DNA of 64,000 nt, taken from IMG/VR virus record IMGVR_UViG_3300048599_000194, positions 239,177 to 303,176 of that record. One strand, given 5' to 3'. The notes under the pieces are model-generated. The model saw nothing but the letters and a program-made list of their open reading frames with translations. It made no database searches and had not been told where the DNA came from. How positions within the stretch are numbered: position 1 is the stretch's first letter; every line of letters starts with the position of its first letter. Shown one piece after another: positions 3,821 through 64,000 of the stretch. The translations under genes were made by a program, and so were the position numbers. The stretch is from a virus (Duplodnaviria > Heunggongvirae > Uroviricota > Caudoviricetes).

Positions 3821-4038
3821 CTCACCTCTTTATTTTTTATTGGAAGTTCACCTGAATAAATTAAACCCCTCAAATATTCATGTGTTCTATTATTATATTT
3901 ACTCTTATGATATTTTCTAAGTATATTATCTGCTTTTTTAGTATACACGTCATTATCGTCAAATTCAACACCAAATACAATACAAGCAGACTCATATTCA
4001 TAAATGTCATCCGCGATTTTAGACATTAAATCTGACAT
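3817..4038 (-). CDS. hypothetical protein
   Basis: ORF trimmed to Met with GAGGG SD; TAATG overlap. Confidence 0.45.
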   Translation of the reverse strand: MSDLMSKIADDIYEYESACIVFGVEFDDNDVYTKKADNILRKYHKSKYNNRTHEYLRGLIYSGELPIKNKEVR

Positions 4039-4916: not shown

Positions 4917-5678
4917 TTAGTCGATGTGCAACAATGCTTCAAGTTCGCGAATGTCTTCTTTACTTGGTTCAGTCTTCATTATAGCCGTAAGGATCTTTGA
5001 CTTATAGCTATCGTCTCTCCCGATCCAATCTTCAAATACTTGGATAATCGTCTTGATATTGCACCAATATCCCTTTTCCATGTATTTCGAGATTCGATAG
5101 ATTTGTGCAATCGGGCAGTGAATATTTTTCACTGTTAGTATTTTCTTAGAATCGTCTCTAGGGAAATCCTTATCTGCAATTCCTTCAAGATTCTTCAATG
5201 TTTCATTTGTTATCGCGGCTCTTGCGATTGTAAAGTCAAAATTATTGAGAATGTCCTCGACATTCTCAGAAGATAATAGTACATGACCTTCATTTAGAGG
5301 TTTAATCAATTGAATGGGCAAAGAACCACCAAAAGACGAAAGCATTGTATTTGCGGCTTCTGAGGTTCTCTTCTCATAGTATCCAGCTTTCTTTAGTCGT
5401 AAAAGAATCGCTTGATATTGTTCATCACCTCTACAATAAATGTCAATATCTCCACATTCGACTGGATTCTTCACCGTCGAAACGCTGAGTCTAGCAAATC
5501 CACCGCAAATAAATCCATCTTCATGAATTATATTTTCAAAGAGATCCTTTAGCAATTCTTCATTGCGCTGAATCTTTAGATATACATAATCTTTAGACGC
5601 AGTGTACTTCAATTCTACCTTAGTGTCAGTGTTGTCTTTGCTGACTGCCTCTAGCTCTTGAATTAGTCCGTCACTCAT
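4917..5678 (-). CDS. hypothetical protein, possible minimal nucleotidyltransferase fold
   Basis: GG...(16)...DID segment resembling Pol-beta NTase signature; weak. Confidence 0.4.
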   Translation of the reverse strand: MSDGLIQELEAVSKDNTDTKVELKYTASKDYVYLKIQRNEELLKDLFENIIHEDGFICGGFARLSVSTVKNPVECGDIDIYCRGDEQYQAILLRLKKAGYYEKRTSEAANTMLSSFGGSLPIQLIKPLNEGHVLLSSENVEDILNNFDFTIARAAITNETLKNLEGIADKDFPRDDSKKILTVKNIHCPIAQIYRISKYMEKGYWCNIKTIIQVFEDWIGRDDSYKSKILTAIMKTEPSKEDIRELEALLHID

Positions 5679-6475
5679 TATGGAAGCATCTCCTCGATTG
5701 CAAAAATCATTTTCTGAACATCGATAGCATATAGACCAGATGAGTTAATTGAATTTACTTCAATCACTTTTAACCCGTCAGGTGTAATGGCCACATCTAA
5801 CACAAACGCTCTATCAGGTTGATAACAATCAACCATTTTCTGAGCAAATTCAATTATATATTCATCAACTGCAGATGAATAATATACAGTTCCTCCGCTC
5901 TTATATAGAGATTGTGTAATTACTTTCCCATCAACAACAAAAAAACGATATTCGGAAAAAATCTCTTTAGGACTTGCAATTACTACTTTAGTATCTGGAG
6001 TAACAGTTGAATATTGATCACCCATTGCCATGATCTTATTCTTAAAAATCAAAAAATCATCTCGACTTATTATCTCAGCAGTAAAAGCCTTAGTATCTTC
6101 ATTAGGTTTGATGAAAAATTCAGAGATATTAGGAATTAACTCGTCTGAGCATCCAAAATTGACCACTATTGAATCATAATTCAACATATTCTCGCCATAA
6201 TACTTCATCAAATTATCAATTGCACTATTATTGCTAATGAATGCCCCCGGAAAATATCCGCGCCGTACTGCATGTTTGCTTAGACTATATGAACCATAAC
6301 AGTAAATATTCCCATTTGAAGGAACGGGAGATTCTAACTTAATACCATCATCACTATCGGAAAATGGAATTACAGTGCAAAACGAATGAGGTATCCCCAT
6401 TCGCTCTACCGATTCGATAAGTTTCAGATATTGACGATCTGAATCGAACCCTCGCTGTATTAACCAGTGCGCCAT
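5678..6475 (-). CDS. ATP-grasp domain protein
   Basis: C-terminal ATP-grasp-like pattern (EYRFFVVDGKV...LDVAI...VIEVNS). Confidence 0.6.
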   Translation of the reverse strand: MAHWLIQRGFDSDRQYLKLIESVERMGIPHSFCTVIPFSDSDDGIKLESPVPSNGNIYCYGSYSLSKHAVRRGYFPGAFISNNSAIDNLMKYYGENMLNYDSIVVNFGCSDELIPNISEFFIKPNEDTKAFTAEIISRDDFLIFKNKIMAMGDQYSTVTPDTKVVIASPKEIFSEYRFFVVDGKVITQSLYKSGGTVYYSSAVDEYIIEFAQKMVDCYQPDRAFVLDVAITPDGLKVIEVNSINSSGLYAIDVQKMIFAIEEMLP

Positions 6476-7051: not shown

Positions 7052-7804
7052 TCACATTTCAATCCAGCGCCTCCCTGAATTCACTGAAAAGTCATGTACC
7101 ATTGCATCACAGTCGAAAACAAGACACTGTCGATCTAATTCATCCCCATCTCGACCAAGTCCAACATTAATGAATTTTCCATCTGGATGAATTCCACGGG
7201 CCACGAATCTTTCATGATAGTGTCCATGAATTACATACTTCGGCTTGATTTCATCAACAATTGACTGAAGTTTAAGGCGATGACTATATGTAAGGGGATC
7301 CCTCTTGTTATCCAGATAGTCCTCGATGTCTACACTTTCAGGACAATCATGAGAGATAATAATGTCGGCTTTCACATCGACAGAGGAATAAATGTCCGAA
7401 TTAGAAATCTCCTCATTAGGCCACTTGTCTACTCCAAATGTTCGTTTCCAGCCATCAATAGAGTAAGCGCCTCCAACTGCACAAAAAGTATATTCGCCCC
7501 ACTGCCACGTTGTCATATTAGGGTGATAGTAGATTCTGGGGGAAACTTCAGAAACAGGTGCAGTATACTGCGCCAAATATTCATGATTGTCATGGTTTCC
7601 CTTGACAAAGTGAATCTCCATGTCACGGCGAACTAACTCAGTAGACAGGTAATAGAGAAATGCCCTCCCGTCAATGTCATGAGGCCAATATCCAAAATCA
7701 CCAACCGACAGGAGAATTTTACATCCACGCGACTCTGCATAATCAAGAACATTGTCAAGATTATATAGATTCATATGACTATCCCCAAAAATCAAAATTC
7801 GCAT
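7052..7804 (-). CDS. calcineurin-like metallophosphoesterase
   Basis: GDSH, GDFGYW, GNHDN motifs. Confidence 0.65.
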   Translation of the reverse strand: MRILIFGDSHMNLYNLDNVLDYAESRGCKILLSVGDFGYWPHDIDGRAFLYYLSTELVRRDMEIHFVKGNHDNHEYLAQYTAPVSEVSPRIYYHPNMTTWQWGEYTFCAVGGAYSIDGWKRTFGVDKWPNEEISNSDIYSSVDVKADIIISHDCPESVDIEDYLDNKRDPLTYSHRLKLQSIVDEIKPKYVIHGHYHERFVARGIHPDGKFINVGLGRDGDELDRQCLVFDCDAMVHDFSVNSGRRWIEM

Positions 7805-9040: not shown

Positions 9041-9472
9041 CTATTGCAACCCGTCACGGATTTCTTGTCGAATATGCATTAGAATTCTACCTAAGAAATT
9101 TCGACCAACTCCAGTATGTTTATTCACACCCCAGAACTCATCCCCCCAATCATTACCTTCTATTAATTCCTGATTTCCAGTCGCTAATAATTTACTTTGT
9201 AATTCCGGAATTGAGAATTTAATTCTGAGTACTTCAAACATTACACGAATTTTAATTCGATCCCAATCAGATCGTAGTTTAATAGATCTTGATTTCTTCT
9301 TCACATCGGCTGAACTATTTGTCGCACAGAATTCTTTCCATTTAAGGTCTTCTCTTTTTTCTGACATATATGCACATTCAGATGAACTGTATACAAAATG
9401 TCCATATGGTATTTCACATTTATAGAAATTAGACAAAAACCTATTACCCGGCGTGTGAAAATCGTCAATCAT
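9041..9472 (-). CDS. NADAR (YbiA-like, DUF1768) family protein, putative ADP-ribose-processing hydrolase
   Basis: FLSNFY...HFVYSSSECAYMSEK...LLATGNQELIE pattern typical of NADAR/YbiA. Confidence 0.6.
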   Translation of the reverse strand: MIDDFHTPGNRFLSNFYKCEIPYGHFVYSSSECAYMSEKREDLKWKEFCATNSSADVKKKSRSIKLRSDWDRIKIRVMFEVLRIKFSIPELQSKLLATGNQELIEGNDWGDEFWGVNKHTGVGRNFLGRILMHIRQEIRDGLQ

Positions 9473-11675: not shown

Positions 11676-12048
11676 GTTGAATCTTGTCTCGCAAGGTATT
11701 CAATCCATCCATAAATGCAATTTCACCTGCAACATATGAAGGCTTAGTTAAAATCACATGATTCATTTCCTTATGATGAGCATACATATATGCGTTAAAA
11801 TCCATCATGTCGGTTAATTGGTCCATATTAATTTCAACATCACCATCACCTTCAATCGTAATAGTAGAACTATCTCCAAAATCATCATCCTTACACATCT
11901 TCAATATTTCATCCAATACTTCATATAAACTATCTTTATTCAGTTGCCTCATCAAATTCAGTAAATCAATAATAGTCAGTTCAACATTAATGTCAGTGTA
12001 TGCATTTTGAAATCTATCGCCGCGATCAACACTGTGCTTAAATCTCAT
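11638..12048 (-). CDS. hypothetical acidic protein
   Basis: 136-aa ORF. Confidence 0.5.
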   Translation of the reverse strand: MRFKHSVDRGDRFQNAYTDINVELTIIDLLNLMRQLNKDSLYEVLDEILKMCKDDDFGDSSTITIEGDGDVEINMDQLTDMMDFNAYMYAHHKEMNHVILTKPSYVAGEIAFMDGLNTLRDKIQHDFCEDIFDGNI

Positions 12049-12686
12049 CCCAGCCTCACGTTCTGAGTAGGTCGAATACTCTCAGAAATATACTTTTGAG
12101 TGTCTTTTGAGAGTGTTACTACATTACACAACGTAAGTAGTTTAGGATCAGCCTCTTGACATTCCTTCATCAGTCGAATCATACTAACACAATCATCAAA
12201 TGCCATGTGAGCATTCTCAGAACTTGTAATAGCTGATAGTTTTCCAACCCCATAATGCTTCTTGAACATTGGAAGAGTATCTCTGAATATGCAATTATTC
12301 TCAAGTCCCAAGAAATCACAATACCACTGTACGAATGTTTTCTCGAACTTTGCATTATGTGCAATACAAATATGGCCTTTTACGAATTCGTAAAATTCTT
12401 TGAAAGCTGTAAACGTATCCGGTGAATCTTCCACCATTTCATTACTAATCTTAGTCAATTCCGTGATTTTATACGGGATCCTAATTGGAGACTTTGGGGA
12501 AAATGCAAATGGCTTGGCGAGAGTATGGAAAATTTCATTCCCTGTCGGAGTCACCTTAATAGCGGCATATTCAATAATTCTAGCGGCTTTCCACGGAACG
12601 AATCCAGTGGTTTCAAAGTCAATAAAGACAATTGTTTTTGTTTCGGATAGCGCGAGGTGCGGTATATCCCAGCTACGTGGCTCCAT
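12045..12686 (-). CDS. DEDDh-family 3'-5' exonuclease (DnaQ/RNase T-like)
   Basis: Exo motifs IDFETTG, AHNAKFE, H...AFDD. Confidence 0.65.
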   Translation of the reverse strand: MEPRSWDIPHLALSETKTIVFIDFETTGFVPWKAARIIEYAAIKVTPTGNEIFHTLAKPFAFSPKSPIRIPYKITELTKISNEMVEDSPDTFTAFKEFYEFVKGHICIAHNAKFEKTFVQWYCDFLGLENNCIFRDTLPMFKKHYGVGKLSAITSSENAHMAFDDCVSMIRLMKECQEADPKLLTLCNVVTLSKDTQKYISESIRPTQNVRLG

Positions 12687-22418: not shown

Positions 22419-22952
22419 TCATTCCCAATCAAAGAGCTTATCGAGAGTAGACCACATCTTAGCGGCTTCGAGGTGATCAACTCTATAAAGAGTTTCTCTG
22501 AAATACGGATATTCCCTACGATATTTCCGCCACTGTTTCAAATTCGACGTGAATTCACTGTATTCGATATTAGTGATTCGATCTGCGAGCTTCACTAGAA
22601 TAGCATCGGCATTGGTAGCAAGTAGAGGATATGTGGCTCGATGCCGCTCTTCACGAGTCTCACCGGGCTGATCTGTAACCAGCTTCACGATGTCAGCCAC
22701 TTGATCACCAAAACGGGACCGAACTTCCTTGATCTTTACGTCAGTATCCTCAACCACATCATGCAAGATTCCAGAAACTTGCAGGTGAGGGTGCGACTCA
22801 ACGGTAAATCCAAATCTATTCAAAGTCTGGCATACGTTAGCCAGATGGAAAATATACGGCTTGTCCTTATCGTAGAACTGTGATCCGTGATTCTCCGTGG
22901 CAAAAATCAATGCCTGGAAATAGATACTTTGAGAGTCTGCCAACTTATTCAT
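22419..22952 (-). CDS. HD-domain hydrolase, SpoT/Mesh1-like (putative (p)ppGpp hydrolase)
   Basis: H...ILHDVVEDT...KLADRITN pattern of RelA/SpoT HD domain; start at Met with GAGGAGG SD. Confidence 0.6.
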   Translation of the reverse strand: MNKLADSQSIYFQALIFATENHGSQFYDKDKPYIFHLANVCQTLNRFGFTVESHPHLQVSGILHDVVEDTDVKIKEVRSRFGDQVADIVKLVTDQPGETREERHRATYPLLATNADAILVKLADRITNIEYSEFTSNLKQWRKYRREYPYFRETLYRVDHLEAAKMWSTLDKLFDWE

Positions 22953-23298
22953 CGTCGTCCTCCTCGTTAGTCGTATCATTAAGATACGGGAGTTCTCCCT
23001 TAGCTTCTACCAGCTTTTCCATGTGAGTAGTGATTAGGGTGTGCTCTCCATGATGGCGAATGATCTTGCCATTGACTTCCATTGTGGTGGGATTATCACC
23101 ACTAAAACTATCATACCCATCATCACTCTTAATTGGCTTGCGAGTAATTTCAAGATACTTATCGTCTCTTCTAGGAAACCAGCGAATCTCAATTAGGTCA
23201 TCTTCGTATTTGTCAGAATCACCTAATATGATTCGAGCCATTCTAACAAAAGCATCTGGCTTGCATCTTTTACGAACAATAGTACTCAAAAGTACCAT
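22945..23298 (-). CDS. hypothetical protein
   Basis: 117-aa ORF. Confidence 0.45.
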   Translation of the reverse strand: MVLLSTIVRKRCKPDAFVRMARIILGDSDKYEDDLIEIRWFPRRDDKYLEITRKPIKSDDGYDSFSGDNPTTMEVNGKIIRHHGEHTLITTHMEKLVEAKGELPYLNDTTNEEDDDE

Positions 23299-33244: not shown

Positions 33245-34006
33245 TTAGAATGTGAAACTCTGACCCTTTGTGACAAATCCATTAAATCCATCTGCGATTG
33301 CATCCGGCTTATCTCCCGGCTGATAATGGTAAAGCCACATCTTAGATTTGGTATTCTCAGGGAGATTCTTCAAATCAGAATAATGTGCATGCACTCCGCT
33401 CTTGAATGGTGCAGTTTCACTATCATGGAAAATGACATCTGCCATATCATAAAACTTAGTCAATTGATTTGGAGCAAACTGAGTATCTCCGGTGAAGAAA
33501 ATAGTTGGCGCTCCGACCACCATATCTTGAATCATGTAGCCGTAAGACTCAACGATCTTAAATCCATTCATGACATGAACCGTCTGAACCGGACGGAATT
33601 GAATTCCTTCCCATTCAAAAGTCTCATTAGGGCTGACAAGATTAAGTGGAAAATAATCTTCCAACTTTAGCATCTTACCTTCGACCGATTCAAGGCCACC
33701 TGCAAGGGACTTATTCCAAATATCATGGAGAAGACTACCAACTCCATACAATTCAGGTTTACGACCAGGAACAAAGTATCGAGAGAACGCCAACCACTCA
33801 ACACCACCACAATGATCTGCATGTGCATGAGTAAGAGTAAATGCGTCAATGTCCTTGGCAGACAGACCCAATTCAGCAAGACCGAATCGAGCATCTCCAC
33901 CAATATCGATTAGGAAATTCTTACCATTCTTCTTCACAAGAAGATTGGATTGATAGTATTCCTTGGTAGTAAATGCACTACCACAGCCGACAAATTGAAG
34001 TTCCAT
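33245..34006 (-). CDS. MBL-fold metallo-hydrolase
   Basis: THAHADHCGG (HxHxDH) motif; AAGGAG SD. Confidence 0.65.
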   Translation of the reverse strand: MELQFVGCGSAFTTKEYYQSNLLVKKNGKNFLIDIGGDARFGLAELGLSAKDIDAFTLTHAHADHCGGVEWLAFSRYFVPGRKPELYGVGSLLHDIWNKSLAGGLESVEGKMLKLEDYFPLNLVSPNETFEWEGIQFRPVQTVHVMNGFKIVESYGYMIQDMVVGAPTIFFTGDTQFAPNQLTKFYDMADVIFHDSETAPFKSGVHAHYSDLKNLPENTKSKMWLYHYQPGDKPDAIADGFNGFVTKGQSFTF

Positions 34007-34477: not shown

Positions 34478-34672
34478 TTAGTCCTCGTAGTTCATTCGTT
34501 TTGCAGACCAATCGCTAAATTTATTAAGCGCAAAGAGTCTGACGTTTCGAGTTCCATTGTAATACCAGAATCCGTGATACACGAATCCAGTGCCAGAATA
34601 ATAAATGCTCTTTCCGAAAATTTTACATACCTTTTTCATTTCAGCGCCAGCCATTATTACTCCTGATTCCAA
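34478..34672 (-). CDS. hypothetical protein
   Basis: 64-aa ORF. Confidence 0.4.
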   Translation of the reverse strand: MESGVIMAGAEMKKVCKIFGKSIYYSGTGFVYHGFWYYNGTRNVRLFALNKFSDWSAKRMNYED

Positions 34673-34820
34673 GGGAAGTGATACCCGTGTGCATAGCTAG
34701 TCAATCCAATGTTAATGGACAGCAACGGAATGCGAATATTAAGCATTTTTGGCTGTGGATCATATTCAATCCACAATCCAATGCCTCGCTTAAAATACAT
34801 TGAAAATCGATACTGGCCCA

Positions 34821-35627
34821 TTACGAAACCACTTCAGGAGGCATTGCATATCCGTCCATTTGCGGAACAAACTTAAAGAAATATCCTTTATCTTGTGAGA
34901 GAATCGGACCTTCCTTATCGATCTTCCAGCCACTCTCATCACGAACCACGAATGCTCCACGCTTACAATCGGTCGGATAATCATTCCAATTCTGACCAGC
35001 TTCCACAATCATGTCGTGTAGTTGTGGGATTTTCTTCGACTGTAGCTTTCCGTGACTATATAGAGCGCGAGCAACCATCTGAACCGAGTTCTTAGAAGCA
35101 TCGTTCTGACGCCAAAGAACTGCGTTGTAGGCTTCCCAGCATTCCGAAACAGTGTATGCCCGAGAATCAAAGTGCGCCAACTTCATCTTGGAAATGAAAT
35201 CGTTAATTTCATCTCGACGGTAATCAAGATCAAACTCAAAACTATCATGAATGCACTTCAATAACCACCGTTTGTTGAATTCAGCAGTTGCAATTGCCGC
35301 AGAAACAGAAACCATCTTCTGAAGATTTCCGTCGAACCATTGAGCGGTTCCTCGCTCATCAAAGTCGGTGAGGATCAAAGTGATCTCATCGCTCTGAGTA
35401 TATCCAATCTTGACATTCTGGATATTCTCACAGAGCGCCAAGGTAGTCGCCTGCATGCAATCCATCAAACTTCGATCAAATGGCTTCTCACATCCACGAG
35501 TGAAAGTGTGAAATGACTTTCCGTCGAGTCGAATAATCGTGTAAGTGCGACGAGGAAGATAGTACCGAGTACGATCTTCGTGCATCTTCATCCGATCTCC
35601 GAGAGAATCCTTGCTATTCATAGACAC
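34821..35627 (-). CDS. Thg1-like protein (tRNA-His guanylyltransferase family)
   Basis: RLDGKSFHTF...EKPFD...VKIGYTQSDEITLIL matches Thg1 core RxDGxxFhxF / GQSDE region. Confidence 0.6.
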   Translation of the reverse strand: MSMNSKDSLGDRMKMHEDRTRYYLPRRTYTIIRLDGKSFHTFTRGCEKPFDRSLMDCMQATTLALCENIQNVKIGYTQSDEITLILTDFDERGTAQWFDGNLQKMVSVSAAIATAEFNKRWLLKCIHDSFEFDLDYRRDEINDFISKMKLAHFDSRAYTVSECWEAYNAVLWRQNDASKNSVQMVARALYSHGKLQSKKIPQLHDMIVEAGQNWNDYPTDCKRGAFVVRDESGWKIDKEGPILSQDKGYFFKFVPQMDGYAMPPEVVS

Positions 35628-35644
35628 ACCTCCAGTTTCTTAGT

Positions 35645-35675
35645 AAGATACTATGAGTGGCACCCATCGTCAACA
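35645..35675 (-). promoter_or_regulatory. promoter-like motif
   Basis: AAGATACTAT-N14-GTCAACA upstream of Thg1-like gene. Confidence 0.55.
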
Positions 35676-35690
35676 ACTAAATACAAATTA

Positions 35691-36398
35691 ATGAGCACTT
35701 CAATTAAAATCAGACCAATAATAGAAAGCAATGATAGTAATAAATGTAAATTGCACGTTTTTCATCTACCATGTTCTAACACAATCAAATTAAATATATG
35801 TGATTCTTTAGAATTTTACTCAGATGTAGATCTTCCGTTCGTAATCGATCCTGATTCAGATATTCAAAGCATGATTAATTTCTTCGAAATGTTATGTTCT
35901 AACTATAGGGCAAAACTATCAGAATTAAATGAACTAATAGAAAAATACAATACAGAATCTACAGAATATAGCAATGATCTAATACATAACTTATTCACAC
36001 TATTGAGAATTGTTAAGCAAGGTAGAGCACATTCAATTGAATTCTCTGCAGGTCTTGAAAAAATAATAAAAGAATATAATTCAACGAAATTGAATGAATA
36101 TTTTATTGACGTTACTGAAATTCAATCCGAATTTGAAATTCTAGCTGAAATGGTAACTGATACAGTGGAAATGGTATCTCATTTGAATGAAAATGATACA
36201 AATAACTTAATGAAAAAACTAACAAAATATACTTTAATATTCACCCCATTAAACTTGTTAGCTGGAATGGGTGGAATGTCTGAATGGAGCACATTTGTCG
36301 CATATGCTGGATTAGGTGGATTCTGGGGTTATATATTGTTCGCAATATTATTAATTATTATTGGAATATCAACCTCATATTATTTCAGAACTAAGTGA
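35691..36398 (+). CDS. CorA-like transporter-family protein, truncated, with variant GMS in place of GMN
   Basis: C-terminus LIFTPLNLLAGMGGMSEW + 2 TM + YYFRTK resembles CorA TM1-GMN-TM2; plus strand; start at first Met after minus-gene overlap. Confidence 0.5.
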   Translation: MSTSIKIRPIIESNDSNKCKLHVFHLPCSNTIKLNICDSLEFYSDVDLPFVIDPDSDIQSMINFFEMLCSNYRAKLSELNELIEKYNTESTEYSNDLIHNLFTLLRIVKQGRAHSIEFSAGLEKIIKEYNSTKLNEYFIDVTEIQSEFEILAEMVTDTVEMVSHLNENDTNNLMKKLTKYTLIFTPLNLLAGMGGMSEWSTFVAYAGLGGFWGYILFAILLIIIGISTSYYFRTK

Positions 36399-40877: not shown

Positions 40878-41053
40878 TATGGGTGAACGCTCAAAACCGA
40901 AAGAATATGATGAACTTCCGTCACTTCAGACTCTAATTCTTCATGACATTCTTCATATTCATCGACAGTACCATCACGATTGAGATACACTGTTGCAATT
41001 TCAGTGACGATTCTTGTAATTTTAGCCTTAACTTTTCTAGGTTTTCCAGTCAT
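40878..41053 (-). CDS. small hypothetical protein (58 aa)
   Basis: Read by eye; AAGGAGAT SD; ATGA overlap with upstream stop. Confidence 0.35.
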
Positions 41054-41772
41054 TCGTAAATCTCCTTAATTTCATCCGCTAGTTCTTGGCTAAAACAGTT
41101 ATATTTCTCTAGAATTAGCCTAAGAGATCTAACTTTATCTCTAGTTTTCATGTCTTTAGGGGCGAGCGCCTTAAATTCACTAGAAGTTTTGTTAAATACT
41201 TCTTTGTATCTGGCATTTATTTTATCCCAAAGAATATCAGCGTCATACTGTTCACCTAGTTTACATAGTTCAACCCATAGCCAATTGCTTTCATGATAGT
41301 CATGTATCATACCAGTTCTAGCAATTTGGCTTCCAAACTTAAGAATTCTAATTGAATGAAAAATCGATTTCAGTGCGGCTTTCTTATCGTAATCACCAGA
41401 GATTATTAGTTTCTTTTTCCCTTTAACCCATGAATTATTAGCTATAGTTGAAATTGATTCTCTTAGTCTATTGAGATTTAATCTAAAATGCTTACGGTAA
41501 TCATAAATGTTTGGATACTTAGGATCATCCGTTGGCAGAAATATACATTCGAGGGCCGAAATGTCGTGATTTTCTATCTTACTCAACCATTCTGCATGAG
41601 TGTATATTTGATAGTGGAAATCACCCTCCATGCGAAGAGACGTATCTTTAATTACATTTTCCGGCAGGATCTCGATAATATCGTAATCTGAATCAATACT
41701 TGCAGTTCCATATACTCGGGAACCAAACAAATATCTCGCATTATATTCAACTTTGTTCAATTCAGAAATCAT
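41050..41772 (-). CDS. nucleotidyltransferase-fold protein
   Basis: GSRVYGTASIDSDYD = GS...DxD Pol-beta-type NTase signature. Confidence 0.5.
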   Translation of the reverse strand: MISELNKVEYNARYLFGSRVYGTASIDSDYDIIEILPENVIKDTSLRMEGDFHYQIYTHAEWLSKIENHDISALECIFLPTDDPKYPNIYDYRKHFRLNLNRLRESISTIANNSWVKGKKKLIISGDYDKKAALKSIFHSIRILKFGSQIARTGMIHDYHESNWLWVELCKLGEQYDADILWDKINARYKEVFNKTSSEFKALAPKDMKTRDKVRSLRLILEKYNCFSQELADEIKEIYE

Positions 41773-42170: not shown

Positions 42171-42172
42171 AG

Positions 42173-42255
42173 GGTGTAAGACGGGACTCGAACCCGCAAG
42201 CCTCTCGGCACCAGAGTCACAGTCTGGAATGTTTACCAATTCCATCACCTACACC
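42173..42255 (-). tRNA. tRNA-His(GUG) with encoded G-1
   Basis: Cloverleaf; anticodon loop CUGUGAC; extra 5' G pairs with C73; T-loop TTCGAGT. Confidence 0.8.
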
Positions 42256-43774: not shown

Positions 43775-43991
43775 TCTCAGTTTTCTCCTTGTTTATTTCT
43801 CTCACTAGTTCAGTCATCTGCTTTTTTTGACTTTTCGTCATAGAGCCGATGATCATCATTAAGTCCACTGGAGGTGGAGGCTTAAACATCACAATATCAT
43901 TCTCGACCCACATTTCGACACCAATTGATTTGATGTGATATAAAAGACTAAGTATGACATTCGTACTCTTTCCATTATTACGCATGCTCAA
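43767..43991 (-). CDS. hypothetical protein
   Basis: 74-aa ORF. Confidence 0.4.
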   Translation of the reverse strand: MSMRNNGKSTNVILSLLYHIKSIGVEMWVENDIVMFKPPPPVDLMMIIGSMTKSQKKQMTELVREINKEKTENE

Positions 43992-45264
43992 ACTCCACCA
44001 AGTACGTTAGGTTAGCTTGATTCACATTATATACAATCATTTCATTATTCTGAACTCCAGACTTACCGCCTACTGCGTAAGTGGAATCATAGCCCTTCAT
44101 TGGAAGATTAGAAGATGATCTGCTAGGAGTATATGCCTTACCCATTGCAACATCTGCCAAGAACATGAAACAATTATTATTGCGCCCTTTACCACTATGC
44201 CAATAACCTGTAGCATAGTTAAGCGACTTTGTGGATTGATCACTGAAATACAATCCATCTCCAAACATTCTACCACATACATGAGGCGCATTTGATCGAG
44301 GGATTACTAGACCTTGTTTCAGAATCGAAAGCACATTAGAAATCTGAGTTCCATGCCAATACTCATTGACATTACCAAGTTTCTTCGCCACTGGCTCAAA
44401 TCGAATAGTAGTTTCTGGCATCTGAACTTCAAACACTCTAAACAGCTTATACGCAGATGAAGAGTGAGAACGATTCAAGGTACTCTTGAACTTTTTCTCG
44501 ATTCTATCAATCACCTTCTTATCAGCGACCAAATTGAGAGATACGTTAAAAATCTTAGGAGTCTCTATATTCTCCACTTCAACAACAGTATCCACCTGAG
44601 AATTGACCATTAGGAGAGACGCTTCGAGCGAATCAAGAATCGAATTCTGCTGGAGAATATCTGCATCTGAAGTGTATAGTTGATCGGGACGGATGCGCAT
44701 CCCAACATTCTGAGGAATGAATGTCAAATACTTCTGAAGCATCTCATGATACTTCGAATCTTCAAACTTCTTTGCAAGAATGAAGTCAGACATAGAAATT
44801 AGGAGTTTTCGCGCAGAAGTGATAGAATTCGAGGATACTATTCCAATCGGAGTACTGAAAAGTCCAGTATCCACGTTATACGTCATCGTAGTAGATGACA
44901 GAATTTCATGGACGTTCATCTTCGCCAGTTGCTTAATCAAATCCCCGACTACCGAGGAATTCGAACCAATCTGAGATACCGCAACGCTCTCCAATGTTGT
45001 GCTTGGGGCAACAGAAACAGATTTACCTGTTTCGATCACATCCTGCTTAACATATCCCTTTGCTTCCTTGGATCTCATTTTTGAGTGAGCCGCTTGAAGA
45101 CCTTTATCATGCGATCCAAAATTCTTGGTGGTCGAATCACCTGCGTATCCAATCCGACCCCATTCAAAAACAACATTTCCATCATCGTGAACGGTGTATT
45201 TCCAGAACTTATTATTGTTTCCTGAAATATTGGTCAAGGTTAATGTTGCAGTTTCAAGTACCAT
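43978..45264 (-). CDS. PARP-like ADP-ribosyltransferase (WGR domain + PARP catalytic domain)
   Basis: N-terminal WGRIGYAGD (WGR); C-terminal YWHGTQ..N..SIL, GRMFGDGLYFSD..SKS..Y, NNEMIVYN match the PARP H-Y-E signature blocks. Confidence 0.65.
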   Translation of the reverse strand: MVLETATLTLTNISGNNNKFWKYTVHDDGNVVFEWGRIGYAGDSTTKNFGSHDKGLQAAHSKMRSKEAKGYVKQDVIETGKSVSVAPSTTLESVAVSQIGSNSSVVGDLIKQLAKMNVHEILSSTTMTYNVDTGLFSTPIGIVSSNSITSARKLLISMSDFILAKKFEDSKYHEMLQKYLTFIPQNVGMRIRPDQLYTSDADILQQNSILDSLEASLLMVNSQVDTVVEVENIETPKIFNVSLNLVADKKVIDRIEKKFKSTLNRSHSSSAYKLFRVFEVQMPETTIRFEPVAKKLGNVNEYWHGTQISNVLSILKQGLVIPRSNAPHVCGRMFGDGLYFSDQSTKSLNYATGYWHSGKGRNNNCFMFLADVAMGKAYTPSRSSSNLPMKGYDSTYAVGGKSGVQNNEMIVYNVNQANLTYLVEFEHA

Positions 45265-45350: not shown

Positions 45351-45422
45351 TTTCCCCCACAGGATTCGAACCTGTATTCGCGGGACCAAAACCCGCTGTC
45401 CTGCCAATTGGACGAAAGGGAA
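45351..45422 (-). tRNA. tRNA-Gln(UUG)
   Basis: Cloverleaf; anticodon loop UUUUGGU; U1-A72. Confidence 0.75.
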
Positions 45423-45542
45423 GTTAGGATTGGCATGTCCAGTAGGGATTTCACCTACACTGCAGAATCGTCATCCTGACACCTCTAAGCCGAGGCCGCT
45501 ATCATATTCACCCTAAACAGGTCATTTTTGCGTATGGACAAA

Positions 45543-45615
45543 TGCACGATGAGGGACTCGAACCCACGGTGTTCTGCGTGTAGGGCAGATGCTTTAGCCG
45601 CTAAGCTAATCGTGC
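45543..45615 (-). tRNA. tRNA-Val(UAC) (C33 instead of U33)
   Basis: Cloverleaf; anticodon loop CCUACAC; one T-stem mismatch. Confidence 0.55.
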
Positions 45616-45741
45616 ATGGTGACATGGCTAAACCGAAATTCCATGTCGTAAGTTGAGCCGTTATACGGTATAGCTCATCTATTTTTTGAGAGGTTGCAGT
45701 GCATCCACCAAGAACCCACCTCACAAGAATGGGGATGTTCA

Positions 45742-45823
45742 ATTAAAATAGACCGCACAGGACTCGAACCTGTCATCTAGGAGTGTCCACCTAAGCATTG
45801 CCCAGAATGCTCCACCGCCTATC
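45742..45823 (-). tRNA. atypical tRNA-like element (class-II-like; 5' acceptor not resolved)
   Basis: Perfect T-arm ACAGG-TTCGAGT-CCTGT, extra arm, anticodon-like hairpin GCATT-CUGGGCA-AATGC; no partner for 3' acceptor strand. Confidence 0.3.
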
Positions 45824-45825
45824 TA

Positions 45826-45896
45826 ATTGAAGTTGGGACGAGAGGATTCGAACCTCTGTTAACCGAGTCAGAGTCGGCCTTCCTGCCACTAGAAGA
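45826..45896 (-). tRNA. tRNA-Gln(CUG)
   Basis: Cloverleaf; anticodon loop CUCUGAC; U1-A72. Confidence 0.75.
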
Positions 45897-46018
45897 CATC
45901 CCAAGTAAACTGCGCGGAATTCCTATTATCTCATCTTCAGTCTCGGTATTCGCCCCCGATTAATCTGAATACTCCTTCATAGGCGGTTTCGAATTCGTGT
46001 TCCCGCTGACACGCACCT

Positions 46019-46228
46019 TCAACTTACTGTTAATTGTTCCGTCATACTGGTCGATGATCTATATATTAACTGACCTCCATTACTACAGTTTCTAATAACT
46101 CCGAGTCGATATGGAGATGTTCTAGTGAGTTTTAACTTAACGTCACATTCAGAACAGTATCCAGTAGACTCATATGGATCATACGAATTCAACGTACTGA
46201 TTTCTTCTCCGCACATTGGACACTTCAT
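46019..46228 (-). CDS. small zinc-ribbon protein
   Basis: 69-aa ORF with CPMCGEE...CSEC. Confidence 0.4.
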   Translation of the reverse strand: MKCPMCGEEISTLNSYDPYESTGYCSECDVKLKLTRTSPYRLGVIRNCSNGGQLIYRSSTSMTEQLTVS

Positions 46229-46388
46229 TATTTCCTACTTCCCGCATTCACATGGTTCTTTTCCACATCCAGGGCATAAACCCTCTCTTAGTCTCTTATG
46301 TATCTTACATTCTGCAATCGTATCGAATCGAAACGGTCTGCCGTTAATATGAGATGTTCCATCGAGATCCGTCTCTTTTCCAGTTGTT

Positions 46389-46544
46389 CTAGGCTTCCGA
46401 TTCATTCAACAATTCCTCTAATTCTTTTTTCATTCGAATACGAGTCGATCCAGTATCTCGTTCCCTTGGGTCATATGGATCATCGTTAGCACCATATGGT
46501 TTCATTTTAGGTGGAGCGTGTCTTGTTGGCTTATTTCTTTTCAT
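46389..46544 (-). CDS. small hypothetical protein (51 aa)
   Basis: Read by eye; below ORF-track cutoff. Confidence 0.25.
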   Translation of the reverse strand: MKRNKPTRHAPPKMKPYGANDDPYDPRERDTGSTRIRMKKELEELLNESEA

Positions 46545-46563
46545 ATTAACTTCCTTTACTTAG

Positions 46564-46647
46564 TACCGGAGGAGGGACTCGAACCCTCACGCCCTTTCGG
46601 GCAACGGATTTTGAGTCCGTCGCGTCTACCAATTCCGCCACCCCGGC
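46564..46647 (-). tRNA. tRNA-Leu(CAA)
   Basis: Class II cloverleaf; anticodon loop CUCAAAA; resembles E. coli Leu tRNA. Confidence 0.8.
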
Positions 46648-47035
46648 ATCATGGAGTTGAGGGAAATCGAATCCCTGTCCTAAACAGCTTCAAAAAAGAC
46701 ATCTACAAGTTTAGTTTCTATTTTAATCTCACAGAATCAATCGTCTAAAAACAAACTAGAGATTCTGCCAGTCCATTAATCTCGGTTACATGCATGAACT
46801 ACTTTGCAACCTATCCAATATGTTGAACGCTTGCGACTATTATGGAATTTCGTCGTAGCGCCTCGCCGTTACTTAAGCGGCGAGAGCGTAAGAGTAGGAC
46901 TCTTCTGCATTTATTGTTTTCAGGTTTTTACGAGGCCACCTGACCCTCGACTTGCATTCTCATTCTACCCTATTCAGTCGAAACCTTTACAACCCCTTAA
47001 TCCCTTAAAGCGTCAAGTCACGATTTAAGAGAAGT

Positions 47036-47118
47036 GCGCAAGGAGGGACTCGAACCCTCACGCCCGAAAGGGCACTACCACCTCAAAGTAGCGGGTCTAC
47101 CAATTCCCCCACCTGCGC
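47036..47118 (-). tRNA. tRNA-Leu(GAG)
   Basis: Class II; anticodon loop UUGAGGU. Confidence 0.75.
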
Positions 47119-47122
47119 ATAT

Positions 47123-47311
47123 TCACAAATTCAATTCTTTCAAGAATTCTCTCGAAATTTGACGACTACGTCTAATTTCTTCTTCAGTTATTGGAGTTTC
47201 TCTAACAGATTCAGATCTTATTAATCCATTTGAATATCTAGAATTTTCTTCATGTCTTTTCAAGATTCGATCAATTTCTGACATTCCATCATTTTCGTCA
47301 ATGTCGCTCAT
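47123..47311 (-). CDS. small acidic protein (62 aa) between tRNAs
   Basis: Start with GGAGGG SD; longer ORF-track version would overlap a tRNA. Confidence 0.4.
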   Translation of the reverse strand: MSDIDENDGMSEIDRILKRHEENSRYSNGLIRSESVRETPITEEEIRRSRQISREFLKELNL

Positions 47312-47328
47312 CAATATACCCTCCAGAG

Positions 47329-47412
47329 TGCGCAAGGTGGGACTCGAACCCACACGCCCTTACGGGCACCAGATCCTAAGTCTGGCGCGTCTACCAATTC
47401 CGCCACTAGCGC
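47329..47412 (-). tRNA. tRNA-Leu(UAG)
   Basis: Class II; anticodon loop CUUAGGA; U-U at 5-68. Confidence 0.75.
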
Positions 47413-56110: not shown

Positions 56111-56214
56111 TGGGGGAGGCCGGATTCGAACCAACGATCAAGAAGTCGGACCATTGTCTGCTGACGCATTGACTGGCACTGCCTCTTAGCTTTAAGCCTC
56201 TAAGCTACTCCCCC
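56111..56214 (-). ncRNA. oversized tRNA-like RNA (104 nt)
   Basis: Perfect acceptor GGGGGAG/CTCCCCC, canonical D-arm GCTT-AGAGGCTTA-AAGC, T-arm with two G-U pairs; ~48-nt multi-hairpin insert replaces anticodon arm. Confidence 0.35.
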
Positions 56215-56402
56215 ATTTTCCTGAAATCCTACCAGAAAGTGCCGTTTCTAGATAACGACTAAAGATTAAAACACCTTTCTAGCATTTCTCATTCTGACAA
56301 TCTTTCTTGTTGCAAAATGAGTTTTTCGACTTTCCTATTATTCAAATAAGAGGATTGAAAAACAAAGACTGAAAACAACCACTAGTCTAGGATTTCAGGA
56401 AG

Positions 56403-56475
56403 CTGGGGATGCAGGGATCGAACCTGCGACGGGTTGGTTAACAGCCAACTGCTCTACCTACTGAGCTAATCCCCA
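56403..56475 (-). tRNA. tRNA-Asn(GUU)
   Basis: Cloverleaf; anticodon loop CUGUUAA; U1-A72. Confidence 0.8.
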
Positions 56476-56704
56476 ATTTAGTCACAACCCCTGTTTCCAG
56501 AGGCCAAATTAATGTACTTCCTAAATGAAGTTAGAGGGTTCGATGCCTTTATTCATTTAGTTTTCGAAAGTCGTTTTCGTTCGATTTGATGAGGTATTTG
56601 CAGATCGTAAACCGACTGCCAGAGCCTACCCGACTTACTTTTTCGAATGTGGATCCATATCCGTGCCTAAAATCGACAAAGCACTACATTCTAGAAGTAC
56701 AAGT

Positions 56705-56777
56705 GGACACATGTGGGATTCGAACCCACGACATCCTGCGTGCAAGGCAAGCGTTCTACCAACTGAACTAATGGCCC
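56705..56777 (-). tRNA. tRNA-Ala(UGC)-like with mispaired acceptor stem (possible pseudogene)
   Basis: D, anticodon (CUUGCAC) and T arms fold; acceptor has 2 mismatches. Confidence 0.4.
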
Positions 56778-56963
56778 ATTTCAAATGTTCGGAGTTTCCT
56801 GCAATCTTTTTAGAATCTAGACATTGCAATATCGTTGATTCCTGTTAGTGCAGTTTTCGTCTAATAGTCCGAGGGATTAGTGGACTTCAAAGACTTTTTC
56901 GAGTTTCTATACAAAGATGCCGGAAATTTCCCCCGAACGACCTTAACTCTAGAAACTCCGAAG

Positions 56964-57035
56964 TGGAGAAGATGGGACTTGAACCCACAACAATCTGCTT
57001 GCAAAGCAGGCGCTCTACCATTGAGCTACGACCCC
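56964..57035 (-). tRNA. tRNA-Ala(UGC)
   Basis: Anticodon arm CCTGC-UUUGCAA-GCAGA like E. coli alaT; G3-U70 present; two acceptor mismatches. Confidence 0.6.
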
Positions 57036-57198
57036 AGCAACTAATTGTCGATGACCACTACACCAAAATACCTTTCGAGGGGCTATGAGTAGTGTCTTTC
57101 GCTGTTTTGTTTGGTTCCTAACAGTACCTCATGTTTTTCGGATTGCATTTCTGCTAGATTCTATAGCCAAAAAAAGAATCTTCCTAGTCATCGACAAA

Positions 57199-57272
57199 GT
57201 GTGCAAGGGTGGACTCGAACCACCGACCTTCTCCGTATCAGAGAGACGTTCTAACCAACTGAACTACTCGCA
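57199..57272 (-). tRNA. tRNA-Ile(GAU)
   Basis: Cloverleaf; anticodon loop CUGAUAC. Confidence 0.8.
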
Positions 57273-57356
57273 CATTAACGGTTCCAGAGGGAGGACTACC
57301 TCCTATCCAACTAGCTATCTTGGAATTATTCACGAACATTGAATTCGTCTCTGAAG

Positions 57357-57432
57357 TGCCCCAGGTCGGACTCGAACCGACCACCTTTGGATTTTCAGTC
57401 CAACGCTCTGACCTCGTATGAGCTACCGGGGC
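57357..57432 (-). tRNA. tRNA-Phe(GAA)
   Basis: Cloverleaf; anticodon loop CUGAAAA. Confidence 0.8.
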
Positions 57433-57560
57433 ATTGAGTCTTGATGTGTATTTGGCTGACTCTTCGCCATATGTGATGCACATCTCACCTTGCAACATCT
57501 ACCGATTATCTATTGCACGTTCTTTATCAGATTCTTTCGAATCATCCTCGGAAGAAGCAG

Positions 57561-57632
57561 AGCACTGAGTGGGAGTCGAACCCACGTCTTCAGATTGGAA
57601 ATCTGAGATAATAGCCGTTATATGACCAGTGC
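57561..57632 (-). tRNA. tRNA-Gly(UCC)
   Basis: Cloverleaf; anticodon loop UUUCCAA; U73. Confidence 0.8.
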
Positions 57633-57646
57633 ATTGACTATCACAG

Positions 57647-57720
57647 TGCGTTAGGAGGGAATTGAACCCCCGACCTAGAGCTTAGAAGGCTCCCGCTCTA
57701 TCCAACTGAGCTACTAACGC
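57647..57720 (-). tRNA. tRNA-Arg(UCU)
   Basis: Cloverleaf; anticodon loop CUUCUAA. Confidence 0.8.
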
Positions 57721-62888: not shown

Positions 62889-64000
62889 TTATAGCGCCTT
62901 AGTACGCTTCTCCACCTCTTCCATATATTTTTCCAGAGCGAGCTTCTCGTTTACTACCTTCTTAGTGTAAATTGCCACAATTAGCATTCTCTGAGCATCT
63001 CCAAGTGCCTTACCCATGTAGCCTTTATCCATCAGCCACTGAGAATCAATGGCCAATTCTTTATTGCTCAATGGAACTCCATTCAGAGATTTCAATTTAT
63101 TAAGCAGTTCAGAATCATTCATCGAATCAGCCGCATCTTGCATATATTGGAGATAATGTCTATTTTTGAACATTACATTCAAAGCATCCATTGTCTTCAA
63201 CATGCGAGCCAAAGTAATTGCATGAGATACTTCAGTTGGTAATTTCAGCTTGGTATAATCTCCACCGTTCAGAAACAACAATATCAGATTAACTACGAAC
63301 TTATCTCCCTTCACTAGCGAAACTTTCACTGGAATGAAATTTTGACCGAAAATATGCTTTCCAAGACCAGTTTCATTGAGTAAATCAATGATTTTTTCAT
63401 TAGAATGAAATTTTCCCTTAGTGAAAGCCTTCTTGAATTCCTCAAGAATTCTCTCGCCCGTGATATTATCGATTAGTCCAACATTTTCCTTGATAGCTTT
63501 CAAGGTTTCAGGTTCAATTTCAAATCCAAATCGATTTGCGAACTGAATTGCTCTAAGCATTCTCAAAGGATCTTCAGAGAAACGCTCCTTTGCATCTCTA
63601 ACTGCCTTAATTCTGCCCTTTTTGATGTCTTCAATACCGCCAAACGGATCTATGTATTCACCGGTTTCAACATCCTTCGCAATTGCATTGAAGGAAAGAT
63701 CACGACGGCTCAAATCAGCTTCGACTGATAGCGAAGGATCTCCAAAAGTCTGAACATCATCGTGTTTCCCAGATCCGCCGTATACTTCGGTACGAGGAAT
63801 CGCAAAATCATAGGGTTCTTCAGAACCATCAATGATGGCCTTAATGACCTGCATCGATTCTCCAACTCCAGTAGATACGATCTTATCTGAAATTGTAGAT
63901 AATGCCTTCTTAAGATCATCAAATGCAACATTTGTAACCAAATAATCAATATCCTTGGACTTTGCTCCGAAAATTTCATCTCGAACAACTCCACCAACTC
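62889..64000 (-). CDS. cca: tRNA nucleotidyltransferase (CCA-adding enzyme, class II head domain), 5'-partial at window edge
   Basis: Same frame continues to window end and encodes VGGVVRDEIFGAKSKDIDY (GGxVRD...DxD); downstream RRDLSFNAIA and DPLRMLRAIQFANRFGF motifs. Confidence 0.7.
   Translation of the reverse strand, partial: VGGVVRDEIFGAKSKDIDYLVTNVAFDDLKKALSTISDKIVSTGVGESMQVIKAIIDGSEEPYDFAIPRTEVYGGSGKHDDVQTFGDPSLSVEADLSRRDLSFNAIAKDVETGEYIDPFGGIEDIKKGRIKAVRDAKERFSEDPLRMLRAIQFANRFGFEIEPETLKAIKENVGLIDNITGERILEEFKKAFTKGKFHSNEKIIDLLNETGLGKHIFGQNFIPVKVSLVKGDKFVVNLILLFLNGGDYTKLKLPTEVSHAITLARMLKTMDALNVMFKNRHYLQYMQDAADSMNDSELLNKLKSLNGVPLSNKELAIDSQWLMDKGYMGKALGDAQRMLIVAIYTKKVVNEKLALEKYMEEVEKRTKAL

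Follow-up and report, generated by a model that had tools for sequence, protein, structure and literature searches.

The DNA analyzed here (the window) is a stretch of 64,000 nucleotides from a large uncultured phage genome; it has a G+C content of 39.7%, and its minus strand carries nearly all of the genes. Among them is a gene for a Thg1-like protein (TLP), which shares the window with a tRNA-His gene, a large array of further tRNA genes and a CCA-adding enzyme (Table 1). The mechanically called open reading frame of the TLP (34821..35627, minus strand) comprises 268 aa from a GTG codon at 35627. Judging from the local sequence, however, translation almost certainly begins with the ATG at 35621, because the GGAGG motif lies 7 nt upstream of this codon, whereas the GTG follows the motif by only 1 nt, and because the closest homologs begin with MSSKDSLGD at the equivalent methionine. 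Further upstream there is one promoter candidate. Sigma-70-like sites are no more frequent in this upstream region than in shuffled sequence, and a similar element (TTGACC-17-TATCTT) occurs in the related contig L001, where it is located 3' of the tRNA-His terminator. Seven related phage contigs retain the TLP gene, and its dN/dS against the orthologs in four related contigs is 0.08-0.16, which indicates a real gene that is expressed as protein and is under purifying selection.

Table 1. Coordinates of the TLP gene, its signals and the other features discussed, numbered from the first nucleotide of the window.
Feature	Position	Strand	Evidence and remarks
TLP coding sequence, 266 aa	34821..35621	(-)	Stop codon at 34821-34823; Pfam, PHROG, PDB, AF2/Foldseek, dN/dS
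Shine-Dalgarno sequence GGAGG	35629..35633	(-)	Read from the sequence; 7 nt upstream of the ATG at 35621
Candidate sigma-70-like promoter, TTGACG-17 nt-TATCTT	35645..35673	(-)	Consensus scan; weak evidence
54-aa ORF	34657..34821	(-)	ATG shares 1 nt with the TLP stop codon; translationally coupled
Apyc1 (anti-Pycsar phosphodiesterase; metallo-beta-lactamase)	33245-34006		Pfam PF23023, 102.9 bits; PDB 7U2S, E = 5e-29
tRNA-His(GUG), class-II shaped, with a long variable arm	42173..42255	(-)	ARAGORN 42172-42254; Rfam tRNA 42173-42254, 51.4 bits
39 further tRNA genes, a tmRNA and one 104-nt tRNA-like RNA	45351..57720	(-)	Candidate TLP substrates
Class II CCA-adding enzyme	62889..63998	(-)	Runs off the window end; Pfam PolyA_pol head and RNA-binding domain

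We also analyzed the neighbourhood of the TLP gene, which contains a DUF488 gene, a CorA-like gene on the opposite strand, the 54-aa ORF, a 58-aa ORF, a DUF7694 gene and Apyc1. Seven related metagenomic contigs with TLP identities of 70-97% share this gene order. Apyc1 begins 815 bp downstream of the TLP stop codon, apparently in one transcription unit with the TLP gene, and this linkage is present in all seven. The order is lost, however, in the next clade out (contigs L005 and L006, TLP 54% identical), and therefore the synteny reflects relatedness and not a functional module. The 54-aa ORF directly follows the TLP gene in L001, L003 and L007-L010 and is absent from the more distant L005 and L006; the small ORFs 3' of the TLP gene were accordingly rejected as conserved partners, being restricted to the immediate clade. 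The conserved neighbours (DUF488, the two small ORFs, DUF7694 and Apyc1) give the TLP no tie to RNA repair. A scan of approximately 58 ORFs in the window revealed neither an RNA ligase nor a polynucleotide kinase, and the TLP gene therefore does not lie in a classical repair operon. Two other candidates for tRNA processing were considered and rejected. The gene that we assign to Apyc1 matches RNase Z only at E = 4e-4, far more weakly than it matches Apyc1, so that it does not represent an RNase Z in a tRNA-processing operon; and an RNase_T-family protein (12045-12686) is grouped by NCBIfam with DnaQ/PolC-type DNA exonucleases, which speaks against a tRNA 3' trimmer. A Pol-beta nucleotidyltransferase (41050-41772) adjoins the tRNA-His gene and shows only weak MntA-like matches, so that it was given no assignment.

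Next, we examined the family membership and the active site of the protein. An earlier note on this DNA had recognized the core of the Thg1 family in the reading frame at 34821-35627 and had proposed a Pfam search, and the outcome leaves the Thg1-family annotation solid. The match to PF04446 (Thg1) has an E value of 5.6e-29 and a score of 101.1 bits against a cut-off of 29.2, and spans profile positions 2-129 of 130. The protein also matches PHROG 4717 ('tRNA-His guanylyltransferase', E = 2.9e-77) and the TLP of Bacillus thuringiensis (BtTLP, PDB 4KGK; 40% identity, E = 2.2e-52, no gaps over residues 7-119), and no NCBIfam model matched it. Both characteristic motifs are present, namely RxDGxxFHxF as R33-L-D35-G-K-S-F39-H40-T-F42 and the second block as T77-Q-S79-D80-E81. 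In BtTLP, D30, D75 and E76 are the metal-binding carboxylates, R28 binds the nucleotide, and K43 and S74 act in activation (PMC3701042). The gap-free alignment, with an offset of +5, places these residues at D35, D80 and E81, R33, K48 and S79 of the phage protein, so that all of the catalytic residues defined in BtTLP are present. D35, D80 and E81 are also the equivalents of D29, D76 and E77 in hTHG1. In addition, K104 pairs with a lysine of both 4KGK and 3WBZ, and R156 with the arginine of the 'FDGR' sequence in BtTLP; these two residues correspond, by alignment position only, to K95 and R130 of hTHG1, which together with R27 form its nucleotidyl-transfer set. The earlier note had made its assignment depend on the conserved carboxylates and basic residues, and these have been retained: in an alignment of about 36 homologs (46-97% identity), D35, D80, E81, R33, K104 and R156 are invariant, as are K14, G36, F39, H40, W172, R173, D176 and N180.

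The structural analysis gave a consistent picture. An AF2 model built on the homolog alignment (mean pLDDT 88.1, pTM 0.87) predicts that the phage protein has the Thg1 fold, with a palm domain and a helical domain. When the model was compared with the PDB by Foldseek, ranks 1-32 were all Thg1 or TLP structures, the best being BtTLP 4KGM (TMt 0.88, 40% identity); the first match outside the family appeared at E = 0.013, with weak GGDEF and Cas10 matches at E values of about 0.01-0.1. The sole structural peculiarity is a variable insertion of approximately 29 residues (approximately 120-148), which in the model lengthens one helix and adds another short one; it differs among close relatives and is missing in many homologs. 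By homology, the active form would be a homotetramer, that is, a dimer of dimers. Taken together, the conserved residues suggest a catalytically intact enzyme of the palm-domain 3'-5' RNA polymerase type.

The Thg1 superfamily includes both bacterial-type TLPs and eukaryotic tRNA-His guanylyltransferases, and the earlier note had favoured the former. We therefore compared the E values against representatives of each type. The value was 2.2e-52 for BtTLP, compared with 6.6e-9 for Candida Thg1, 2.9e-6 for an archaeal TLP (5AXK) and 6.9e-5 for human Thg1. HINNLYN is a eukaryote-specific Thg1 motif, the histidine of which stacks on the anticodon of tRNA-His (PMC6471195). Opposite the HINNLYN of the Candida protein, the phage protein has CWEAYNA, and the consensus of the homolog family in this region is DPWEVxNxFxWRQ. 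Given that HINNLYN is missing and that the protein is far closer to BtTLP than to eukaryotic Thg1, the choice of the earlier note was correct and the phage protein can be assigned to the bacterial type, an assignment based on pairwise E values and the motif. A eukaryotic-type enzyme would also be expected alongside a tRNA-His gene without G-1, to which G is added opposite A73, and here G-1 is encoded opposite C73. The database name 'tRNA-His guanylyltransferase' thus overstates what is known.

To characterize this encoded nucleotide, we analyzed the tRNA-His gene together with the flanks of all 40 phage tRNA genes. G1 is located at 42254 and the 7-bp acceptor stem extends to C72, so that the genomic G-1 (42255) faces C73 (42173). 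In the alignment of the flanks, position -1 is T in 35 of the 40 genes and G in only one, which is tRNA-His. The tRNAs also have a TAAT consensus at positions -4 to -1, and in tRNA-His this consensus is moved one base upstream (cTAAT-G-G1), ending before G-1. Bacterial RNase P prefers U at -1. If cleavage of the other tRNAs occurs directly 3' of TAAT, the cut in tRNA-His would keep G-1. The tRNA-His genes of contigs L001, L007 and L010 all retain AAT-G(-1)-G1 and C72-C73, and the encoded G-1 is a conserved and selected feature. The earlier statement that this tRNA carries a G-1 in its gene, paired with C73, was thus borne out by ARAGORN and Rfam, by the flanks of the 40 tRNAs and by the three related contigs. 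From this the earlier note had concluded that G-1 addition is not needed. The conclusion stands for de novo addition, which is not obligatory when G-1 is encoded, but it does not extend to the restoration of a lost G-1; such a role is possible despite the encoded nucleotide because BtTLP and Dictyostelium TLP2 add G-1 opposite C73. As a separate observation, the class-II shape of this tRNA-His, which gives it the look of a remoulded tRNA-Leu, was the most unusual item met in the analysis. In contig L007, where the TLP is 97% identical, the tRNA-His is of the ordinary class-I shape.

The other RNA genes and the enzymes acting on tRNA provide the context of the TLP. CCA is almost never encoded in the 40 tRNA genes, the consensus of the 3' flank being N73-C-T-T. 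The CCA-adding enzyme, which matches PDB 1MIV at E = 4.8e-23 and whose translation contains the motif GGVVRD...DID, is the counterpart of the TLP for the 3' end, and a protein with a TilS N-domain (TIGR02432, 129 bits) is encoded inside the tRNA array. The TLP is thus one element of a set for tRNA supply and maintenance, which comprises the 40 tRNAs, the tmRNA, the CCA-adding enzyme and the TilS-like protein. The earlier note had also suggested that the TLP matures oversized tRNA-like RNAs, and we found no support for this. In the 104-nt tRNA-like RNA (56111-56214), the 7-bp acceptor stem is perfectly paired, position -1 is T and the 3' end reads A73-C-T, all as in the ordinary tRNAs; there is no sign of a special link to the TLP, and nothing in this RNA suggests a need for the enzyme.

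We also searched for homologs in phages and cellular genomes. Homologs of the TLP occur in 162 deposited phage genomes, all of them large, with at most 44% identity to the protein described here; they include those of Bacillus phages Eldridge and Goe8, Staphylococcus phage PMBT8, Fusobacterium phage FNU3 and Xanthomonas phage XacN1. Metagenomic and genomic protein sets contain at least 7,980 homologs at E <= 1e-10, and the genomes of bacteria and archaea contain more than 547 homologous loci. The TLPs in bacterial genomes are taxonomically scattered and at most 50% identical to that of the phage. PMBT8 has a complete genome of 88 kb that encodes a TLP with 44% identity and no tRNA gene at all; therefore, the TLP family cannot depend on a phage tRNA-His and can serve host RNAs. 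FNU3 encodes a TLP, an RNA ligase and five tRNAs, one of which is a tRNA-His with G at -1. The search found no near DNA match to the surrounding phage sequence, and the rIIA-like protein of the phage is at most 29% identical to the versions in cultured phages. Given that there is no near DNA match and that the nearest TLP of a deposited phage is only 44% identical, the phage belongs to a new uncultured lineage.

What, then, is the function of the enzyme? We consider it probable that the TLP serves the general repair of the 5' ends of phage and host tRNAs, with the restoration of G-1 as a special case. The activity, the substrates and the source of the damage in this reading are those that we infer from the homologs, the individual steps being modelled on BtTLP and MaTLP. 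The TLP would bind the acceptor end of a tRNA that is short of one or more 5' nucleotides, and the 5'-monophosphate would be activated with ATP or GTP via K48 and S79, while D35 and D80 hold two Mg2+ ions. NTPs would then be added singly in the 3'-5' direction and selected by Watson-Crick pairing against the 3' strand of the acceptor with the participation of R33, K104 and R156, and addition would end once the acceptor stem is full. On a tRNA-His with C73, the same reaction would restore G-1 where it has been lost. In this way the TLP may keep the 5' ends of phage and host tRNAs intact against mis-processing, exonucleases and host defence nucleases, and it would complement the phage CCA-adding enzyme, which acts on the CCA-less tRNAs. 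Counting against 5'-end repair, we know of no physiological source of 5'-truncated tRNA in bacteria. The reading agrees with the kinetics of BtTLP, which prefers 5'-truncated tRNAs over full-length ones by 5-160-fold and accepts tRNAs other than tRNA-His; a kinetic preference for 5'-truncated tRNAs of any identity is on record for BtTLP and MaTLP only (PMC3061083). Repair is also favoured by the G-1 encoded in this phage and its relatives, by PMBT8 with its TLP but no tRNA gene, and by the CCA-less tRNAs accompanied by the CCA-adding enzyme and the TilS-like protein.

In the main rival reading, G-1 is the dedicated target. In such a case, the host RNase P would sometimes or always cut pre-tRNA-His at +1, and the TLP would install or maintain G-1 by adding the G again. 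C73, the template needed for this, is present in all four related phage tRNA-His genes, and BtTLP acts on a tRNA-His with C73 with a kcat/KM of 5500 M-1 s-1, which equals that of yeast Thg1 on its own substrate (PMC3061083). There are also precedents, because RNase P is reported to strip an encoded G-1 in plant mitochondria (PMC3061083) and DdiTLP2 adds G-1 opposite C73 in vivo in Dictyostelium mitochondria (PMC6471195). In addition, no tRNA lies nearer to the TLP gene than tRNA-His, at a distance of about 6.5 kb, and the class-II shape of this tRNA-His is odd. However, the register of the conserved TAAT leader fits a mature tRNA that begins with G-1, which speaks for the retention of this nucleotide, and PMBT8 has a TLP without a tRNA-His gene. 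Furthermore, BtTLP favours truncated tRNAs (PMC3061083), and the TLP does not track the odd tRNA, as seen in L007 with its nearly identical TLP and class-I tRNA-His. We therefore regard a role dedicated to G-1 as rather unlikely.

A narrower form of the repair hypothesis concerns host defence. The TLP may rebuild 5' acceptor strands that have been clipped by an anti-phage nuclease of the host or by a 5'-3' exonuclease, working in tandem with the CCA-adding enzyme. We consider this counter-defence role unlikely as a specific proposal. If true, it would parallel at the 5' end the way in which T4 counters the host anticodon nuclease PrrC with Pnk/Rnl1, and it would provide the first physiological role for bacterial and phage TLPs.

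We also considered the possibility that the enzyme acts mainly on a target other than ordinary tRNAs, such as the tmRNA, the 104-nt RNA or the 5' ends of other phage RNAs, or that it has a role in nucleotide signalling or counter-defence. The phage does encode a tmRNA and an oversized tRNA-like RNA, and Apyc1 lies downstream of the TLP gene in all seven relatives; moreover, the palm fold of Thg1 is common to GGDEF and CRISPR polymerases (PMC2904730), and the model has weak GGDEF and Cas10 matches. However, every known residue for the 5' activation of tRNA and for nucleotidyl transfer is conserved, the 5' ends of the oversized RNA and of the tRNAs are normal and fully paired, the linkage with Apyc1 is missing in the next clade out, and no TLP is known as a maker of signalling nucleotides. 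Such a target is very unlikely.

Finally, we inspected all 40 acceptor stems for the kind of mismatches that are edited in mitochondria. Pairs 1:72, 2:71 and 3:70 are standard in 38 of the tRNAs, the exceptions being one tRNA-Met (U1xU72) and one tRNA-Ala (G3.G70 and C4.U69). Initiator tRNAs of bacteria are normally marked by a mismatch at 1:72, and rewriting the tRNA-Ala from its 3' strand would not yield the G3:U70 alanine identity pair. A TLP3-like editing system would be expected to come with several tRNAs mismatched in pairs 1-3, of which only these two were found, and 5' editing of the type carried out by DdiTLP3 in Dictyostelium mitochondria (PMC6471195), in which mismatches in the first three acceptor pairs are excised and rewritten by the TLP, is therefore extremely improbable here.

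General 5'-end repair, the reading that we prefer and that the earlier note had also proposed, is the standard interpretation of the family. Rao et al. argued in 2011, on the basis of biochemistry, that the enzyme must carry out repair in bacteria and archaea, where G-1 is encoded (PMC3061083), and Iyer et al. listed Thg1 in 2021 among the RNA-repair enzymes of jumbo phages that restore 5' nucleotides, on the basis of comparative genomics (PMC7824862). The family had likewise been catalogued in phages already (PHROG 4717, 162 deposited genomes), and our literature search found no published test of the activity of any phage TLP. The practical value of the present analysis is a corrected annotation, in which the gene starts at 35621 and encodes a protein of the TLP, or 5'-end repair, type and not a 'tRNA-His guanylyltransferase'. 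Because the phage is uncultured, it is not a convenient experimental system. We suggest that a phage setting is a reasonable place to seek the physiological role of the bacterial-type TLPs.

A comparison with known systems places the enzyme as follows. The eukaryotic Thg1 proteins of yeast, human and Candida (3OTB, 3WBZ) have the superfamily, the fold and the two-metal active site in common with the phage TLP. However, the identity is only about 20% (E = 6.6e-9 and weaker), the phage protein is without HINNLYN, and the eukaryotic enzymes act on a tRNA-His without G-1, adding G opposite A73 in a non-templated reaction, whereas the phage G-1 is encoded and faces C73. The TLPs of Dictyostelium (TLP2 and TLP3) and Methanosarcina acetivorans (MaTLP, 5AXK-5AXN) are of the TLP type with demonstrated templated 3'-5' addition: TLP2 adds G-1 opposite C73, TLP3 carries out repair after 5' editing, and MaTLP binds tRNA without reading the anticodon. 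They differ from the phage TLP in that their sequences are distant (E = 2.9e-6 to 5AXK) and in that the phage tRNAs are without editing-type mismatches. BtTLP resembles the phage enzyme in the palm domain, which aligns free of gaps, in the D/D/E, R, K and S set, in the fold and in that the tRNA-His of its source organism encodes G-1; the differences are that the phage TLP is encoded by a phage and not by a cell, and that it has the insertion of approximately 29 residues. The phage genes of PHROG 4717, members of this family that are 40-44% identical across more than 90% of the length, come from phages of 88-385 kb, the number of tRNA genes in phages with a TLP ranging from zero (PMBT8) to 40 (the phage described here). 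Although T4 Pnk/Rnl1 and the CCA-adding enzymes are unrelated proteins with unrelated chemistry, and target the anticodon loop or the 3' end instead of the 5' end, they follow the same logic as the one proposed for the phage TLP, namely that a phage enzyme restores the integrity of tRNA.

The tRNA-His of the window has a D stem of 3 bp, a D loop of 11 nt and a variable arm of 15 nt with a stem, and it is 72% identical to the tRNA-Leu(UAG) encoded by the same phage at 47328-47412, with which it shares an identical anticodon stem. From this resemblance, the gene looks like a tRNA-Leu that was remoulded into a tRNA-His through the gain of GUG, C73 and G-1. The long form also occurs in L010, one of the related contigs carrying orthologs of the Thg1-like protein (TLP), where, compared with the window, three acceptor pairs differ by compensatory changes and the variable arm is longer by one pair. 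An ordinary tRNA-His lies at the equivalent site in two further related contigs, L001 and L007 (TLP 97% identical). A limited literature search found no description of a natural long-arm tRNA-His.

We also analyzed the sequences flanking all 40 tRNA genes in the window, which are strongly conserved across the array (45351-57720, minus strand). On the 5' side, TAAT directly adjoins the tRNAs, with T at -1 in 35 of the 40; the 3' side reads N73-C-T-T (C74 in 29 and T75 in 35 of 40), and therefore CCA is not encoded in these tRNAs. Judging from this pattern, the flanks likely constitute a uniform processing signal. Two tRNA-Ala(UGC) genes have mismatches inside the acceptor stem: in one, G3.G70 and C4.U69 occur and the alanine identity pair G3:U70 is missing, while in the other G3:U70 is retained and pairs 5:68 and 6:67 are mismatched. 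The first acceptor pair is mismatched (U1xU72) in one initiator-like tRNA-Met(CAU).

The tRNA-like RNA listed in the table received no ARAGORN call. Its acceptor, D and T arms are normal, about 40 nt that fold as an extended arm stand in place of the anticodon loop, and a 7-nt anticodon loop is not obvious in this arm. It has T at -1 and A73-C-T, so that its flanks are similar to those of the other window tRNAs.

Coordinates of the features in the window and in other TLP-bearing phages (L001, L007 and L010, related contigs; L013, Fusobacterium phage FNU3)
Feature	Location	Strand	Support
tRNA-His, class-II shape	window 42173-42255	-	
tRNA-His, long form	L010 5031-5116		
tRNA-His, normal 73-nt	L001 7515-7588; L007 3036-3108		
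tRNA-His, FNU3	L013 38498-38569		
Two tRNA-Ala(UGC) and one tRNA-Met(CAU) with acceptor mismatches	window 56705-56777, 56963-57035, 55706-55778	-	
tRNA-like RNA, 104 nt	window 56111-56214	-	Rfam tRNA 40.6 bits
Class II CCA-adding enzyme	window 62889-63998, continues past window end	-	motif GGVVRD...DID
TilS N-terminal PP-loop domain protein, 201 aa	window 54898-55503	-	TIGR02432, 129 bits
WGR + PARP regulatory + PARP catalytic domains, 428 aa	window 43978-45264	-	PARP E=2e-31
Apyc1-family phosphodiesterase (anti-Pycsar), metallo-beta-lactamase fold	window 33245-34006	-	Pfam PF23023 102.9 bits; PDB 7U2S E=5e-29
CorA-like membrane protein	window 35691-36398	+	Pfam CorA E=1e-11
DHH/DHHA1 phosphoesterase, R2K ATP-grasp, calcineurin-like phosphoesterase, NADAR, HD_4	window 4038-4904, 5678-6475, 7052-7804, 9041-9472, 22419-22979	-	

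The phage encodes a CCA-adding enzyme and a TilS-like protein that consists of the N-terminal PP-loop domain only and whose gene is placed among the tRNA genes, close to three tRNAs with CAU anticodons. Among the neighbouring genes, that of the Apyc1-family protein is found in all related contigs (78-94% conserved). The CorA-like gene is divergent from the TLP gene on the opposite strand; it is present in L007-L009 (236 aa, reverse strand) and absent in L001 and L003, and is therefore a variable insert. The DHH/DHHA1, R2K ATP-grasp, calcineurin-like, NADAR and HD_4 genes form a nucleotide/NAD-related set, which is likely tied to counter-defence. The WGR/PARP gene adjoins the tRNA array, an arrangement conserved in L001, L003, L007 and L010, and the PARP architecture of its product is eukaryote-like.

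Staphylococcus phage PMBT8 (MK893987.1; L011 and L012) also carries a TLP and has zero tRNA genes. Fusobacterium phage FNU3 has both a TLP and an RNA ligase, and its tRNA-His, with CCA encoded, bears a genomic G(-1) that faces A73, an arrangement that is eukaryote-like.
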